Shown here in pieces: positions 1,781 through 60,413 of a stretch of DNA of 64,000 bases (position 1 is the stretch's first letter; each line of letters begins with the position of its first letter). Origin of the DNA: Escherichia coli (lineage in GTDB: Bacteria > Pseudomonadota > Gammaproteobacteria > Enterobacterales > Enterobacteriaceae); assembly GCF_048403405.1 (NCBI RefSeq), contig NZ_CP183129.1; one strand, given 5' to 3'. Below the pieces are notes generated by a model. The model was not told where the DNA came from, did not search any database, and saw nothing but the letters and a program-made list of their open reading frames with translations. Made by a program: the position numbers and the translations under genes.

Positions 1781-2998
1781 TTACAGCTGATGATAACCAG
1801 AAAGGAAACGCGCGAACTTACTCAAAGACAGCTCGATATCATCGACACGCGGTAGCGTGACAATGCGGAAGTGATCCGGCCACGGCCAGTTGAATGCCGT
1901 CCCTTGCACCAACAGAACTTTTTCCTGCAACAGGAAATCCAGCACCATTTTCTGATCGTCGTGAATATTAAAGCGTTTGGCGTCGATTTTCGGGAACATG
2001 TACAGCGCACCGCGCGGTTTCACGCAGGAAACGCCCGGAATATCGTTGATCAATTCCCACGCGCGGTTACGCTGCTCATAAAGACGCCCGCCGGGAGTAA
2101 TAAATTCACTGATGCTCTGATAACCGCCTAGTGCAGTCTGAATGGCGTGTTGCGCAGGAACGTTAGCACACAGGCGCATTGAGGCCAGCATTTCCAGACC
2201 TTCGATGTAACCTTTGGCGTGTTTTTTCGGCCCGTTCAACACCATCCACCCCTGACGGAAGCCAGCAACGCGGTACGTTTTCGACAGTCCGTTAAAGGTA
2301 ATGGTCAGCAGATCAGGTGCCAGCGGCGCAATTGAGTGATGCTCAGCGTCGTCGTAGAGAATTTTGTCATAAATTTCATCGGCGAAGATAATGAGATTAT
2401 GCTGGCGTGCAATCTCCACTATCTCCATTAAAAGCTCTTTGGAATATACCGCGCCAGTTGGGTTATTTGGGTTGATAATAACGATCCCACGCGTACGAGG
2501 CGTAATTTTAGCGCGAATATCATCAAGGTCCGGGAACCAGTCAGAGGATTCATCGCAAAGATAATGCACCGCTTTACCGCTGGAGAGCGAAACCGCCGCG
2601 GTCCATAGTGGGTAATCAGGTGCAGGAACCAACATTTCGTCGCCGCTGTTCAGCAATGCCTGCATTGCCTGAACGATAAGCTCCGATACACCATTGCCGA
2701 TGTAAATATCTTCCACGGTAACATCACGCATGCCACGAGCCTGGTAGTGCTGCATGATGGCTTTACGCGCGGAGTAAAGCCCTTTGGAATCGCAATACCC
2801 TTGAGCGGTAGGCAGGTTGCGAATCACGTCAACGAGGATTTCATCTGGCGCGTCAAAACCGAACGGGGCAGGGTTGCCGATGTTCAGTTTCAGTACCTTG
2901 TTACCTTCTTCTTCCAGGCGTTTTGCTTCTTTCAGCACCGGACCACGGATGTCGTAACAGACATTCTCTAATTTGCTGGATTTTTCAATGGGGGACAT
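1781..2998 (-). CDS. alaA: Glutamate-pyruvate aminotransferase AlaA (PLP-dependent class I aminotransferase)
   Basis: 405-aa ORF; PLP-lysine motif region (NGLSKTYRVAGFRQGW); synteny with yfbR and lrhA. Confidence 0.95.
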   Translation of the reverse strand: MSPIEKSSKLENVCYDIRGPVLKEAKRLEEEGNKVLKLNIGNPAPFGFDAPDEILVDVIRNLPTAQGYCDSKGLYSARKAIMQHYQARGMRDVTVEDIYIGNGVSELIVQAMQALLNSGDEMLVPAPDYPLWTAAVSLSSGKAVHYLCDESSDWFPDLDDIRAKITPRTRGIVIINPNNPTGAVYSKELLMEIVEIARQHNLIIFADEIYDKILYDDAEHHSIAPLAPDLLTITFNGLSKTYRVAGFRQGWMVLNGPKKHAKGYIEGLEMLASMRLCANVPAQHAIQTALGGYQSISEFITPGGRLYEQRNRAWELINDIPGVSCVKPRGALYMFPKIDAKRFNIHDDQKMVLDFLLQEKVLLVQGTAFNWPWPDHFRIVTLPRVDDIELSLSKFARFLSGYHQL

Positions 2999-3914
2999 GA
3001 ATCTTGACCTTTTTTGCTGTTATCGCCACTCCCTGCCGTGGAAGTCAGCTTAGAACAATGTACTCCCCCAGGACGGCGTTTTGAAGGTCTGCAGAATAAG
3101 ATTTTGCCAGAGGGGAAGACTCGATTGTGCTGTTAATAACTTAATAATGGCAAAATAATGAGGTGTATATGCTTAGTAATTAATGTTATGTAGTGAATTG
3201 TTCTGATTCTTAATTGTGAGCGTGGTTTTTTTATCTGTAAGATAATTGTTTGAAAATGCCTCGTTTAAGAATTCACTAATGAATCGTGATGATGATATTT
3301 CCGCATTACGGAGAGTTTAACAGCGTGATGATTTCCGAGGTGTCGTAATGGGTGCAAGGTGTGAAACTATTGTTAAGCGGGATTAATGTATGAGGATGAT
3401 GCTAATTAATTATTATTTAATATTCAAAAAGGTTTTGTTGTGCTTATTAATAATAGAAGATTACTTTGCCTAACATAACATAACTTTGCATCAGATAATT
3501 CGCAATGACCCTTATAAATAAAAGGTTTTTGGGGTAAAATGCTCGCATAAATGACGGATCCCTGCTCTTGATGCCGCCTCACCATTGCTGTTTGTACGTG
3601 TTCGCGTATGACCAGCGATGCTGCACGAGAGTGGAACAAGGACTCACATTTACATTTATACAAACACGCGCATGTCATAAATACAAAAGAGTGAGTAACT
3701 TAATAGATATGCGATTCCTGAAGATATATTCTGTGATCTACTTCAGGCATTATAACGGAACAATGTGAGTCGCTTTTTTAGTGCAACTCATATGCATTTT
3801 TACTTTCGTCCGGGTTCCGGATGAAACTGCCAGGGAGGCACATTACAAATGGAATTGCTTGTTTGTGTGTGCACAGCATTAACCAGCTCAGTATGAGCCG
3901 CCAGTAAGTGATAA

Positions 3915-55513: not shown

Positions 55514-56590
55514 ATGAAATTGACGCTAAAAAACCTTAGCATGGCGATCATGATGAGTGGAATGATCATGGGAAGCAGTGCAATGGCGGCGGATAGCAAC
55601 GAAAAAATAGTCATCGCCCATCGCGGTGCCAGTGGTTATTTGCCGGAGCATACGCTGCCAGCAAAAGCGATGGCGTATGCGCAGGGAGCGGATTATCTGG
55701 AACAAGATTTGGTGATGACCAAAGACGACCATCTGGTTGTCCTGCATGACCATTATCTCGATCGTGTTACTGATGTTGCCGATCGTTTCCCGGCTCGGGC
55801 GCGCAAAGACGGTCGTTACTACGCGATAGATTTCACGCTCGATGAAATTAAGTCACTGAAATTTACCGAAGGTTTCGATATTGAAAACGGTAAGAAAGTA
55901 CAGACTTATCCGGGGCGTTTCCCGATGGGTAAGTCCGACTTCCGGGTGCACACCTTTGAAGAAGAGATTGAATTTGTTCAGGGGTTAAATCACTCTACCG
56001 GGAAAAATATCGGTATCTATCCAGAAATTAAAGCGCCGTGGTTCCATCATCAGGAAGGGAAGGATATTGCGGTAAAAACGCTGGAAGTGCTGAAGAAATA
56101 TGGTTACACCGGTAAGGACGATAAAGTTTATTTGCAATGTTTTGATGCTGATGAGCTGAAGCGTATTAAGAAAGAGCTGGAACCTAAAATGGGCATGGAT
56201 CTCAATCTGGTACAGCTGATTGCCTATACCGACTGGAATGAAACGCAGCAGAAACAGCCGGACGGAAGCTGGGTTAATTACAACTACGACTGGATGTTTA
56301 AGCCGGGGGCCATGAAACAGGTGGCGGAATATGCTGATGGTATTGGTCCGGATTACCATATGTTGATTGAGGAGACATCGCAGCCAGGTAATATCAAACT
56401 CACTGGCATGGTGCAAGATGCTCAGCAGAATAAACTGGTAGTGCATCCTTACACCGTGCGGTCAGATAAGCTGCCTGAATACACTACTGATGTGAATCAG
56501 TTATATGATGCTCTGTATAACAAAGCGGGTGTAAATGGGCTGTTTACTGATTTCCCTGATAAGGCAGTAAAATTCCTTAATAAAGAGTAA
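55514..56590 (+). CDS. glpQ: Periplasmic glycerophosphodiester phosphodiesterase GlpQ
   Basis: 358 aa from MKLTLKNLSMAIMMSG (signal peptide) with ggagg SD; HRGASGYLPEHT motif. Confidence 0.96.
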   Translation: MKLTLKNLSMAIMMSGMIMGSSAMAADSNEKIVIAHRGASGYLPEHTLPAKAMAYAQGADYLEQDLVMTKDDHLVVLHDHYLDRVTDVADRFPARARKDGRYYAIDFTLDEIKSLKFTEGFDIENGKKVQTYPGRFPMGKSDFRVHTFEEEIEFVQGLNHSTGKNIGIYPEIKAPWFHHQEGKDIAVKTLEVLKKYGYTGKDDKVYLQCFDADELKRIKKELEPKMGMDLNLVQLIAYTDWNETQQKQPDGSWVNYNYDWMFKPGAMKQVAEYADGIGPDYHMLIEETSQPGNIKLTGMVQDAQQNKLVVHPYTVRSDKLPEYTTDVNQLYDALYNKAGVNGLFTDFPDKAVKFLNKE

Positions 56591-57457
56591 TGCTATTGCA
56601 GGATGGCGTTCATGCGCCATCCTGTCTCACATCAAATTTTTCCAATCTCCACTAATTGTTCCGTGCACATTTGCAGTAAAAACAGTGGACTGCCTTCTAC
56701 CGGCTTTTCTTTAGCCAGCAACGAAATCTGTCGATAGAAGGTTGGTTCGAGAGGAACGGAACACAATTCATCTGCAATGGTTTTCAGCGTTAACTCTGGT
56801 AATAAGGCGATGCCTAATCCCTGTCGAATAAAACTGATCGCTGTATCCGGGTGATTAAATTCATATTTTATCTGTGGGGTAATATTCTTTTCTTTAAATA
56901 GTGCCATAATGCTTAATTCATAGCGTCCTTTACTAATAATTAATGGTTCACCCATTAACTCTTCCACTGTAATAGTGCTGTTTTTTGCCAGAGCATGGTT
57001 GGGCGGTAACACTACGGTGAATTTATCCTGATAAATGGGCACGGAGTACATTCCGCTCACCGGAAAATGAACAAAACCGGCATCAATGGATTCATTCTGA
57101 AGGGAATCAATAATCGCTGTGCTATTTTCCTCAAAAGGAATAATTTTTATATTCGGATGATGAATTTCAAAGTAGCGAATCACAGCCGGTAAGATACAGG
57201 CGCAGACGCTGGGGAAACAACCAAGTCTCAGCGTTCTTTGAGGGTTCTGCTTTTCCTGCTCGGCTATCTCTTTTACTGCGTTCACTTCCCGATTAATGGC
57301 GCGCAGATGATGCACAATGCGATGACCTGCTGCGGTCAGTTGTATAGCTTTACGGCGATCGCGTAACAGTATACTCACGCCAAGTTCTTGTTCGAGGGCA
57401 GCAATTGCCTGACTTACCGCCGACTGCGTCATGAACAATCGCTTGCTGGCTTCAGTA

Positions 57458-57466
57458 AAGCCACCG
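57458..57466. repeat. IS1 target-site duplication, copy 1 (AAGCCACCG)
   Basis: 9-bp direct repeat immediately abutting the IS1 end, identical to 58235..58243. Confidence 0.95.
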
Positions 57467-57481
57467 GGTAATGACTCCAAC

Positions 57482-57985
57482 TTATTGATAGTGTTTTATG
57501 TTCAGATAATGCCCGATGACTTTGTCATGCAGCTCCACCGATTTTGAGAACGACAGCGACTTCCGTCCCAGCCGTGCCAGGTGCTGCCTCAGATTCAGGT
57601 TATGCCGCTCAATTCGCTGCGTATATCGCTTGCTGATTACGTGCAGCTTTCCCTTCAGGCGGGATTCATACAGCGGCCAGCCATCCGTCATCCATATCAC
57701 CACGTCAAAGGGTGACAGCAGGCTCATAAGACGCCCCAGCGTCGCCATAGTGCGTTCACCGAATACGTGCGCAACAACCGTCTTCCGGAGCCTGTCATAC
57801 GCGTAAAACAGCCAGCGCTGGCGCGATTTAGCCCCGACGTATCCCCACTGTTCGTCCATTTCCGCGCAGACGATGACGTCACTGCCCGGCTGTATGCGCG
57901 AGGTTACCGACTGCGGCCTGAGTTTTTTAAATGGCGGAAAATCGTGTTGAGGCCAACGCCCATAATGCGGGCGGTTGCCCGGCAT
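57482..57985 (-). CDS. insB: IS1 transposase InsB (expressed as InsAB' fusion by -1 frameshift)
   Basis: 167-aa ORF matching InsB; overlaps insA; A6C slippery motif (minus-strand ttaaaaaac, plus 57922..57928) lies inside the overlap. Confidence 0.95.
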
Positions 57986-58179
57986 CCAACGCCATTCATG
58001 GCCATATCAATGATTTTCTGGTGCGTACCGGGTTGAGAAGCGGTGTAAGTGAACTGCAGTTGCCATGTTTTACGGCAGTGAGAGCAGAGATAGCGCTGAT
58101 GTCCGGCGGTGCTTTTGCCGTTACGCACCACCCCGTCAGTAGCTGAACAGGAGGGACAGCTGATAGAAACAGAAGCCAC
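57904..58179 (-). CDS. insA: IS1 protein InsA (zinc-finger/HTH regulator)
   Basis: 91-aa ORF with CPSC...CSHC zinc-finger cysteines. Confidence 0.95.
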
Positions 58180-58234
58180 TGGAGCACCTCAAAAACACCA
58201 TCATACACTAAATCAGTAAGTTGGCAGCATCACC

Positions 58235-58243
58235 AAGCCACCG
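58235..58243. repeat. IS1 target-site duplication, copy 2 (AAGCCACCG)
   Basis: 9-bp direct repeat immediately abutting the other IS1 end, identical to 57458..57466. Confidence 0.95.
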
Positions 58244-58438
58244 TAATCCAGCACGGCGAGTAAAGAATTTATTTGAGTAAGAGTCATTAGAGTTTGCTAA
58301 TCAATAATATTAAAACGATTAATTTCTCTAATAGCGTGCCGCCATTTATACTTCTGTTCTGCAAAGTACATCACAATTTGACGCAACCGCAGTAACGGGA
58401 GTGTTGTCTGCGTGCGTCATCCTGACAGGCGGTAGGGT

Positions 58439-59629
58439 ATGAAAGAGAAGTTATGGACGAAGGATTTTTGGGCAATAACCATCATCAGCTTTATTATTTT
58501 CTTCGTCTTTTATGTTTTACTAACATTGTTGCCAATTTATATCTCAGACCGCTTGCATGCCTCTCCTGATAAAGCAGGTTTGTTGGTGACTTTATTTTTA
58601 ATTGCCGCCATTGTTATTCGCCCCTTTGCCGGGCAATGGGTAGGTAAATATTCGAATAAAACTATTCTGGGGCTCTCTTCTCTGGCCTTTTTGGTGGTCA
58701 CTGCGCTGTATCCTTTTTGCCACTCAATTGAATCACTGCTTTTTATTCGGGTGCTTCATGGTATTACCTTCGGGGTTATCACTACGGTAAAAGGAACGAT
58801 TTCCGCGCGGCTGATCCCGGCCTCCCGACGTGGGGAGGGCATCAGTTTTTTCTCTCTGGCAATGGGGCTGGCAATGGTGGTCGGGCCGTGGATTGGTCTG
58901 AATATGGCGCGCTGGGAAGCCTTTAATCTGGCTTTCTGGCTATGCACCGGCGTGGCAGCGGTGGGGATTATTCTGTCGCTGATTATGACAGTGCCGCCGG
59001 TTATCAGCCATGCTGATGGTTCAACGCCGAAAATGGGCTTCGCCGCCATGTTCGATCGCGCGGCGTTGCCATTTGCGATGGTCACCTTTTTTATGACCTT
59101 TTCGTATGCCGGGGTTTCTGCTTTTCTGGCGCTTTATGCACGCGAACTTAACCTGATGTCGGCAGCCAGTAATTTCCTGCTTTGCTACGCTATCTTCCTG
59201 ATGATCTGCCGTACCTTTACCGGCAATGTCTGCGACAAAAAAGGACCGAAATATGTGGTTTACCCTTGCCTTGTGTTCTTTACGGTAGGACTGGTGGTTC
59301 TCGGCTACACCCAGGGAAGCATAATGATGGTTGTTTCTGGCGCATTGATTGGTATCGGGTATGGTTCCGTGACGCCAGTTTTTCAGACGCAGATTATCAG
59401 TTCAGTGGAACCGCATAAAATCGGTGTCGCAAACTCCCTCTTCTTCAATGCGATGGATGCAGGCCTGGCGCTGGGAGCCTGTGTGATGGGGATGATGGTT
59501 GCACATACTGGCTACCGAATGATTTATCTGCTGGGTGCACTATTAGTGGTAGTGGCTGGTGGAGTCTATGCGCTGCAAATGAAGGGTAAAAGCGGTGTTG
59601 CGCTAGTAGTGGCAAAAGAAATTCATTAA
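58439..59629 (+). CDS. Uncharacterised MFS-family transporter, divergent from the LysR regulator gene
   Basis: 396-aa ORF with about 12 predicted hydrophobic helices; no specific family recognised; I do not recall this gene at the equivalent K-12 position. Confidence 0.8.
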   Translation: MKEKLWTKDFWAITIISFIIFFVFYVLLTLLPIYISDRLHASPDKAGLLVTLFLIAAIVIRPFAGQWVGKYSNKTILGLSSLAFLVVTALYPFCHSIESLLFIRVLHGITFGVITTVKGTISARLIPASRRGEGISFFSLAMGLAMVVGPWIGLNMARWEAFNLAFWLCTGVAAVGIILSLIMTVPPVISHADGSTPKMGFAAMFDRAALPFAMVTFFMTFSYAGVSAFLALYARELNLMSAASNFLLCYAIFLMICRTFTGNVCDKKGPKYVVYPCLVFFTVGLVVLGYTQGSIMMVVSGALIGIGYGSVTPVFQTQIISSVEPHKIGVANSLFFNAMDAGLALGACVMGMMVAHTGYRMIYLLGALLVVVAGGVYALQMKGKSGVALVVAKEIH

Positions 59630-60360: not shown

Positions 60361-60413
60361 TCGTTGTAGGCCAGATAATACGCGTAAGCGTCGTATCTGG
60401 CGCTAGTACCCGA

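Follow-up and report, generated by a model that had tools for sequence, protein, structure and literature searches.

The locus between glpQ and inaA in this Escherichia coli strain is best read, with a probability that we put at roughly 0.7, as an ancestral two-gene module composed of a LysR regulator and a divergent, efflux-type MFS transporter, which is decaying in E. coli and whose regulator gene is here split by an IS1 element. In the window (the whole 64-kb stretch of DNA that was analysed), the minus strand carries the LysR-family gene and the plus strand the MFS gene, and the two share a 151-bp spacer (58288..58438); the flanking genes, the length of the shared control region, and the classic divergent LysR/MFS arrangement are as the sequence-only reading had described them. 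The pair is already known, being the orthologue of z3495/z3494 in O-island 97 (OI-97) of O157:H7 EDL933, with protein identities of 98.0% for the regulator (Z3495) and 98.7% for the transporter (Z3494). Published primers for these genes (PMC10819331) have no mismatches to the EDL933 genes and 0 to 2 to the window. The regulator cannot therefore be called uncharacterised, as it had been, since its O-island 97 orthologue has been studied experimentally (PMC10819331), and the value of our analysis is corrective rather than one of discovery, the locus being ordinary and largely known.

The regulator gene starts at 58287 and ends at 56632 on the minus strand, a span lengthened to 1,656 bp by the complete 768-bp IS1 that it contains. 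Its assignment to the LysR family holds, with an N-terminal HTH_1 domain (PF00126, E=2.1e-15, above the gathering score) and a C-terminal LysR_substrate domain (PF03466, E=4.6e-37), but its description as near-full-length does not, given the IS1 inside. The element (57467..58234) lies at codons 15–18, with its genes oriented like the LysR gene on the minus strand, and has all the expected features of IS1: a length of 768 bp; terminal inverted repeats of 23 nt; insA (57904..58179, minus strand, 91 aa) and the insB frame (57482..57985, minus strand, a 167-aa ORF normally expressed as an InsAB' frameshift fusion), with InsA and InsB Pfam matches (PF03811, PF12759, and PF03400); and a 9-bp direct repeat of the target, AAGCCACCG, present as a left copy (57458..57466) and a right copy (58235..58243). 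In strain 4621, which has an identical genome, it is annotated as an 'IS1-like element IS1B family transposase'.

IS1 parts the 5′ end of the LysR gene (58244..58287, minus strand; MTLTQINSLLAVLDY...), which comprises the start codon (58287-58285) and the first ~15 codons, from the 3′ part (56632..57466, minus strand), which runs from about codon 15 to the stop, includes the left target duplication, and retains PF03466 together with only positions 14–60 of the PF00126 profile. When IS1 and one copy of the repeat are removed in silico, 56632..57466 joins 58244-58287 in frame, which restores an uninterrupted 879-bp ORF whose layout is exactly that of strain ECE204's intact allele. The reconstructed protein has 292 aa, close to the ~300 aa of LysR-type transcriptional regulators (LTTRs), and the full N-terminus that is conserved in all orthologues. 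NCBIfam has no subfamily for it except a model of the yfaH fragment, NF007272 (68 aa), which matches residues 226–292 above its cut-off.

The insertion is recent, because the interrupted gene differs from the intact ECE204 allele by 1 aa with a dS of 0, and because the interrupted allele is found in only 4 of 5,426 complete genomes. It severs the body of the regulator gene from its promoter, its start codon, and the segment for the first helix; the MFS gene, its putative promoter, and the operator are intact. RefSeq annotates the truncated gene as an intact 285-aa CDS, beginning at a TTG codon one base past the insB stop. We consider it unlikely that this ORF is still functional as annotated, when its promoter and start codon are missing and its DNA-binding domain lacks the first helix; some residual activity of the 285-aa product may exist, given the intact RefSeq CDS, and we infer from the sequence that the regulator is probably a null allele in this strain. 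With a null allele annotated as intact, presence/absence screens for 'z3495' would miscount such strains.

The MFS gene (58439..59629, plus strand) is intact and encodes the predicted 396-aa protein, which matches PF07690 with 198.7 bits (cut-off 33.4; E=1.6e-58) over profile positions 2–336 of 347 and thus over both six-helix halves. A simple hydropathy scan gave 11 clear hydrophobic blocks and a weaker one near residues 333–353. Motif A (GNVCDKKGPK, at 262), motif B (LLFIRVLHG, at 100), and the GP motif of TM5 are present, as is a motif-C-like segment (GLAMVVGPWIG, at 143), which is only partly canonical. The closest relatives by sequence are NorA, SotB, CntE, and YfcJ/YhhS-like proteins, and the closest solved structures are those of NorA and SotB. 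The protein is like these DHA1-type exporters (NorA of S. aureus; SotB, YfcJ, and YhhS of E. coli; CntE) in its MFS_1 fold, motifs A and B, and TM5 GP, and differs from them in scoring far below every curated family cut-off: the NCBIfam equivalogs PRK05122 (109.6 bits against a cut-off of 374) and PRK12382 (84.7 against 364) were not reached. It resembles the YfcJ/YhhS proteins but is a member of neither equivalog, and with scores so far below the cut-offs it therefore represents a separate subfamily.

By analogy, the MFS protein is probably an exporter working by proton antiport, with the direction of transport taken from its nearest relatives only. It could instead import a nutrient under LysR control, in connection with the glp genes alongside; MFS uptake systems controlled by LysR regulators are known in this family, and the pair always adjoins glp genes. 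We think this improbable, because the nearest relatives listed above are exporters, the module includes no catabolic enzyme, and the glp neighbour is not constant, being glpQ or glpA depending on the genus.

The divergent control region is intact, and plain counting of T-N11-A LysR boxes, the check that the sequence-only reading had proposed for it, was uninformative (13 matches in 151 AT-rich bases), although two ATTA-N7-TAAT dyads within it do contain T-N11-A. We replaced this counting with dyad-specific patterns and conservation across genera, and three dyads stand out as far above chance and kept across genera. Dyad 1 (ATTAG-N6-CTAAT, 58286..58301) overlaps the LysR start codon and is the proposed LTTR recognition site; its pattern occurs just once in the 64 kb, where 0.04 matches would be expected, and its half-sites are invariant in five independently retrieved genera. 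Dyad 2 (ATTA-N7-TAAT, 58309..58323), a proposed activation site, shares one half-site with dyad 3 (ATTA-N7-TAAT, 58318..58332), which overlaps a weak -35 element; 15 of 16 sequences retain the right half of dyad 3, CTAAT, a half that the search pattern did not include. Since 11 extra species were retrieved with the pattern of dyads 1 and 2, the conservation of these two dyads there is in part circular, and the independent evidence for the operator comes only from the five initial sequences and from positions outside the pattern. Farther into the spacer, an ATCACA hexamer (58370..58375) is invariant in 16 of 16 spacers.

The putative MFS promoter (58324..58352, plus strand) has a -35 element TTCTCT (58324-58329), a 17-nt spacer, and a -10 element TATACT (58347-58352). 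Its position is suggested by a relaxed hexamer scan and by conservation, as a -10-like hexamer (TATACT, TATAAT, or TATTAT) occupies this position in most genera, though it is not perfectly conserved; a strict sigma-70 scan found no promoter in the spacer and only IS1's own promoter. The transcription start predicted from it, at about 58359, would place the centres of dyads 1, 2, and 3 at about -65.5, -43, and -34, respectively. A candidate LysR promoter (ATTAGA-17-TATTAT) is not conserved in Klebsiella or Kluyvera, and we did not rely on it.

In classical divergent LysR-type units, the recognition site lies near -65 and the activation sites lie near -35. The pair described here is like them in its divergent layout, its HTH_1 and LysR_substrate domains, its dyad-symmetric, AT-rich sites in the divergent region, including T-N11-A dyads, and the overlap of one dyad with the regulator's own start. 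It differs in that dyad 1 has N6 between 5-nt arms and is not a strict T-N11-A, and in that binding, co-inducer, and activation are only proposed, by analogy. Among such E. coli units with an MFS partner, YdhB/PunR–YdhC/PunC is an example.

We propose that in intact strains a LysR tetramer would bind the dyad overlapping its own start (about -65) together with one of the two activation dyads (about -43 and -34), and would repress its own gene. With a small-molecule co-inducer bound, LysR would activate the MFS promoter with its weak -35 element, and the MFS protein, acting by proton antiport, would export the compound or one related to it. In the strain studied here, which would have no functional regulator, the pump is predicted to stay fixed at a basal level, and a wider Z3495 regulon, if there is one (rcsF in O157), would be lost. 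The conserved three-dyad operator is a concrete and testable candidate for the primary target of Z3495, and offers a route to the substrate of the pump.

In O157:H7, z3494 has been termed an MFS_YfcJ-like transporter and z3495 a LysR-type regulator, and a 2024 study demonstrated an effect of Z3495 on LEE expression and colonisation (PMC10819331). Deletion of z3495 reduces LEE expression, adherence, and mouse colonisation, whereas deletion of z3494 had no such effect in the published assays; electrophoretic mobility shift (EMSA) and ChIP work addressed the Z3495 target rcsF, and 97 ChIP-seq regions were reported (PMC10819331). The two genes could be functionally uncoupled, because z3494 deletion gave no phenotype and the regulator has reported targets elsewhere. 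On such an account, they are neighbours rather than a regulatory unit, with LysR acting as a broader regulator of rcsF and other genes and the MFS gene expressed independently, and the spacer between them does not appear among the peaks of the published ChIP-seq table. The coordinates of that table, however, are K-12-like, and the spacer is perhaps absent from the reference, so the table says nothing either way about it. The ChIP enrichments are low (log2 1.2–1.8) and mostly over highly expressed genes, the rcsF EMSA fragment lacks the conserved dyads even when one mismatch is allowed, and the divergent layout, the spacer architecture, and the dyads are kept across genera. Independent expression of the two genes thus seems to us hardly likely, and we retain the reading of a regulator coupled to its divergent transporter.

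The wider distribution of the pair points to an ancestral enterobacterial locus that is being lost rather than to an acquired module. In Salmonella, Klebsiella, and Kluyvera, the interval from the glp genes to yfaE-nrdBA contains the same pair, with protein lengths of 292 aa and 396 aa, and Citrobacter, E. whittamii, and a cryptic-clade Escherichia likewise have it next to the conserved operator. A dN/dS of 0.04–0.07 indicates strong purifying selection on the pair, and the E. coli–Salmonella dS of the MFS gene, 1.6 against 0.77–1.33 for flanking core genes, is of the same order as theirs and somewhat higher. The description of the locus as a variable accessory module stands as regards its variability within E. 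coli but not as regards acquisition.

The authors of PMC10819331 interpret OI-97 as a lateral island, gained independently by pathogenic lineages and its regulator recruited for virulence, from its patchy distribution in two clades. Two further observations could be cited in favour of this: the E. coli LysR allele has a GC content of 43%, against 46–50% for its neighbours, which is the sole island-like trait that we found, and a second LysR/operator haplotype, 24% diverged, occurs in about 105 genomes. We nonetheless consider lateral gain very unlikely, since the pair is syntenic elsewhere, with the same position and gene lengths in five other genera or species groups, its synonymous divergence, if somewhat higher, is on the scale of that in the flanking core genes, and both alleles that lack it contain remnants of it, a deletion scar in the K-12 type and a vestige from the 3′ end of the MFS gene in B2. 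The EDL933 locus and that of the window are alike in their site next to inaA, in their gene lengths, and in a spacer that differs at 2 of 151 positions; they differ in that the regulator is IS1-interrupted in the window and not in EDL933, and in that EDL933 has an extra 1.7-kb AT-rich gene between glpQ and the regulator which the window lacks. Also against lateral gain of the pair, it is this 1.7-kb segment next to glpQ (33.5% GC), separate from the pair, that is clearly foreign in EDL933. A Pfam search of the extra AT-rich ORF, which is present in EDL933 and in cq9, gave no family. O-island 97 thus appears to reflect a deletion in the K-12 lineage and not an O157 acquisition, which alters how the virulence role of Z3495 is read. 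The virulence read-out of OI-97 may also not apply to the present strain, whose relatives are human isolates (strain 4621 is from blood).

To describe the loss of this ancestral module within E. coli, we surveyed 5,426 complete genomes, counting the pair as full length where at least 80% of it is present. Full-length pairs occur in 1,215 genomes (22%), such as O157; a deletion scar or other partial remnant in about 3,150 (about 58%), such as K-12, W, and a BL21 derivative; and 1,057 (19.5%) are empty, including UTI89, 536, and ST131 (B2). An intact pair is thus not the state of most E. coli, and a single scar is common to about 2,700–3,100 genomes. The statement that K-12 has only a fragment here was accurate, as MG1655 carries only the 207-bp pseudogene yfaH (b2238) between inaA and glpQ. 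It corresponds to the last 68 codons of the same LysR gene, and K-12 also keeps an unannotated 105-bp remnant of the MFS 3′ end; about 1.9 kb is gone, comprising the 5′ three-quarters of the LysR gene, the spacer, and most of the MFS gene. The junction of the K-12-type deletion lies at 13-nt microhomologies: in the window, the left one (ATTTTATCTG.., 56866..56878), where the deletion begins, is the 13-nt overlap of the two K-12 matches, and the right one (ATTTATCTGCTGGG, 59523..59535) marks where it ends. In the B2 allele, 14 of the 19 nt at the very end of the MFS gene survive as the vestige. Other independent IS1 lesions are also present, making at least three independent IS1 hits including that in the window. 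The module is dispensable and decaying in E. coli, through the microhomology deletion, the older B2 deletion, and several independent IS1 events. Literature on yfaH, and on the guessed Salmonella tags STM2280/STM2281, yielded nothing useful.

More tentatively, we speculate that the module is an ancient and tightly conserved sensor-and-export device for a small molecule that enterobacteria encounter, that its repeated inactivation in E. coli reflects selection for loss and not drift, that the O157 virulence role of the regulator is secondary with the pump as its primary target, and that the diverged haplotype represents replacement of the sensor half; this combination is possible, but we would not favour it. 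The proposal that this strain has an intact, uncharacterised accessory LysR/MFS module missing from K-12 finds some favour in the pair being present here, in its carriage by 22% of complete genomes, and in an MFS protein below every curated cut-off, but is highly improbable with the regulator split by IS1, its orthologue already studied experimentally, and the K-12 state a deletion scar of the same pair. As a separate observation, the pump gene attached to the diverged LysR/operator haplotype is 97% identical, and the existence of this haplotype shows recombination at this site.

The sequence-only reading holds in part, for the observation and for its interpretation alike. The pair between glpQ and inaA is real but already known, as O-island 97 (OI-97) of O157:H7 EDL933 and as yfaH, and the sequence-only reading was mistaken in calling it uncharacterised. 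New here are a probable IS1 null allele in the window, evidence that OI-97 is ancestral and has disappeared from most E. coli rather than being a gained island, and a candidate operator through which the regulator would act on its primary target. OI-97 is a 2006-bp region comprising z3494 (MFS_YfcJ-like) and z3495 (LTTR) (PMC10819331, Microorganisms 2024); deleting z3495, but not z3494, reduces expression of LEE genes, adherence to HeLa cells, and colonisation of the mouse colon, and the regulator is described as laterally acquired and reported to bind the rcsF promoter (PMC10819331). The primers of that study have no mismatches on the EDL933 LysR and MFS genes and 0-2 on the window; the window and EDL933 proteins are 98.0% (LysR) and 98.7% (MFS) identical, with 2 differences between the two 151-bp spacers.

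The ORF map and Pfam matches agree with the sequence-only reading on the glpQ and inaA flanks, the 396-aa MFS gene (58439..59629, plus strand; PF07690, 198.7 bits), and the 151-bp divergent spacer between the LysR and MFS starts (58288..58438), but its near-full-length LysR gene is in fact cut at codons 15-18 by IS1. The 768-bp element (57467..58234) ends in 23-nt terminal inverted repeats, with a copy of the direct repeat AAGCCACCG on either side (57458-57466 and 58235-58243). It carries two minus-strand ORFs, InsB (PF03400) and InsA (PF03811 and PF12759), which lie between the LysR reading frame and the LysR start codon at 58287. That frame, on the minus strand, ends at 56632, matches PF03466 and, from profile position 14 onwards, PF00126, and begins at a TTG one base past the insB stop. 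Removing IS1 and one repeat copy in silico gives an unbroken 879-bp ORF (292 aa), with the same layout as the intact allele of strain ECE204 (879-bp LysR, 151-bp spacer, 1191-bp MFS). Because the insertion parts the promoter, start codon, and first DNA-binding-domain helix from the remainder of the gene, leaving a residual frame from TTG, we infer that this is a null allele. The insertion is recent: a single residue and no synonymous change separate the interrupted gene from the ECE204 allele, and of 5426 complete genomes only 4 have the junction (4621, MS 69-1, TUM1226, and OX030728; a fifth listed match was a joined one to another IS1 insertion, located within the MFS gene). In strain 4621, which has the window's allele, RefSeq/PGAP annotates the truncated LysR as an ordinary 285-aa CDS, WP_071587557.1, starting inside IS1 (window 56632-57489; 2501-3358 in the 4621 locus sequence, L002); it has no pseudogene flag, and presence/absence surveys would therefore count it as intact.

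Orthologues of the MFS gene with 84-86% identity are present in Salmonella, the Klebsiella oxytoca group, and Kluyvera, each divergently adjoining a 292-aa LysR gene and sited between glp genes and yfaE-nrdBA; inaA is an Escherichia addition at this locus. Every orthologue ORF is intact and equal in length, with dN/dS against the window of 0.04-0.07. Between E. coli and Salmonella, dS is 1.6 for the MFS gene and saturated for LysR, compared with 0.77-1.33 for glpT, glpQ, yfaE, and nrdB. A search of species-representative genomes for the composite operator pattern described below found 16 loci (in Citrobacter, Kluyvera, Klebsiella, Salmonella, E. whittamii, cryptic-clade Escherichia, and one mis-binned MAG contig), at every one of which LysR and MFS orthologues flank the operator, one on each side. 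Taken together, the same-site orthologues, intact ORFs, dN/dS and dS values, and operator synteny across genera argue for vertical descent followed by loss, and not for acquisition. The MAG contig (L025, 3474 bp, labelled Collinsella sp.) carries an E. coli-type LysR (98.6% identity) and MFS, and almost certainly comes from E. coli, having been mis-binned into an actinobacterial MAG. What looks truly foreign at the locus is an extra 1.7-kb segment (33.5% GC) that separates the LysR stop codon from the glpQ terminator in EDL933 (L015, ~560-2240) and some other genomes (L014, 7078-8184), including some with the K-12-type allele; it is absent from the window (~56620). It codes for a hypothetical protein of ~356-368 aa, with zero matches in a Pfam search; the ORF is whole in EDL933, and other genomes have it frameshifted or disrupted by IS1.

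The expectation that K-12 holds only a yfaH fragment is borne out: in MG1655, yfaH (b2238) is annotated as a 207-bp pseudogene with inaA on one side and glpQ on the other, and NCBIfam NF007272 (68 aa, built on yfaH) matches LysR residues 226-292 with a score over its cut-off. The K-12-type allele also retains 105 bp from the 3' end of the MFS gene. The two remnants join across a 13-nt microhomology (56866-56878 and 59523-59535 in the window), and the allele is therefore a deletion scar that has lost ~1.9 kb. Across 5426 complete genomes, 1215 (22%) have at least 80% of the pair, ~3150 (58%) have a partial match, mostly the 342-bp scar, and 1057 (19.5%) have a short "empty" spacer. The pair is thus variable, as proposed from sequence, but "accessory module", in so far as the term suggests acquisition, is not supported. 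Among anchor strains, the scar is found in K-12, MC4100, a BL21 derivative, H10407, W, and O111, the empty allele in UTI89, 536, and ST131, and the intact pair in O157:H7; these strains belong to phylogroups A and B1, B2, and E, respectively. The empty allele is also a loss, as 14 of the final 19 nt of the MFS gene still align. Other independent lesions include an IS1B within the 5' part of the MFS gene (L007, from UID2309220009, 2746-4713) and IS1A insertions with adjacent truncations (loci L005 and L013); either the locus is a recurrent IS1 target, or IS1 is recurrently tolerated there.

A second haplotype (L006, from F8111-1SC3, 2240-3640 versus window 56500-58557) diverges by ~24% in nucleotide sequence from the glpQ 3' end through the entire LysR gene and the spacer to ~120 nt into the MFS gene, after which identity is ~99%. 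It occurs in ~105 genomes, including O145:H28 EHEC and O169:H41, and looks imported, as E. whittamii and cryptic-clade Escherichia carry the window-type allele; as to a donor, it is nearer to Citrobacter by only a small margin.

Across five sequences retrieved independently of any motif, the third of the spacer nearest LysR hardly varies. It contains the dyad ATTAG-N6-CTAAT (58286-58301), the sole match in 64 kb with 0.04 expected, and two overlapping ATTA-N7-TAAT dyads (58309-58323 and 58318-58332), a pattern with five matches in 64 kb, these two included, and 0.63 expected per whole window. A -10-like hexamer, TATACT (58347-58352), is TATAAT or TATTAT in other genera, and the putative -35, TTCTCT, is weak and overlaps the third dyad. 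Measured from an implied start near 58359, the dyad centres fall at about -65.5, -43, and -34, which are canonical places for LysR recognition and activation sites. A search for a LysR box in the spacer is thus answered by three dyads, which we propose as a candidate operator of the regulator's primary target, although a stricter promoter scan of the spacer detected zero promoters; no position could be assigned to the LysR promoter. Conservation of the pattern positions in 11 extra species is circular, those loci having been retrieved with that pattern; independent of it are the right half of the third dyad and ATCACA (58370-58375), which lies downstream of the proposed -10 and is invariant in 16/16 aligned spacers. 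The TTGACG that follows (58378-58386, TTGACGCA) is conserved only in Escherichia, Salmonella, and Citrobacter; the two could be another factor's site, part of a 5' leader, or an alternative promoter element.

The reported rcsF fragment has none of the conserved dyads. The Z3495 ChIP-seq regions (PMC10819331 Supplementary Table S4) have low enrichment (log2 1.2-1.8) and lie mostly over highly expressed genes (rRNA, ribosomal proteins, ompA, ompC, pflB, ptsH, and others), and the rcsF label is absent from the table. Its coordinates are K-12-like, with a glpQ peak at 2.351 Mb versus 3.167 Mb for EDL933 glpQ, so the missing peak at the pair's own spacer is uninformative. The reported regulon may need re-analysis.

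The MFS protein reached no cut-off against curated subfamily models. It comes closest to the YfcJ-like and YhhS-like models, to CntE, and, where solved structures are concerned, to NorA and SotB, all of them exporters; motifs A and B are present, as is a GP motif in TM5. For the generic LysR protein, the best matches (GltC, CidR, AlsR, and CynR) fall below threshold. Both a substrate for the pump and a regulatory link between LysR and MFS are presumptive. By eye, a REP-like imperfect palindrome, GTAGGCCAGATAATACGCGTAAGCGTCGTATCTGGCGC, lies downstream of inaA, between it and yfaE (~60365-60405).
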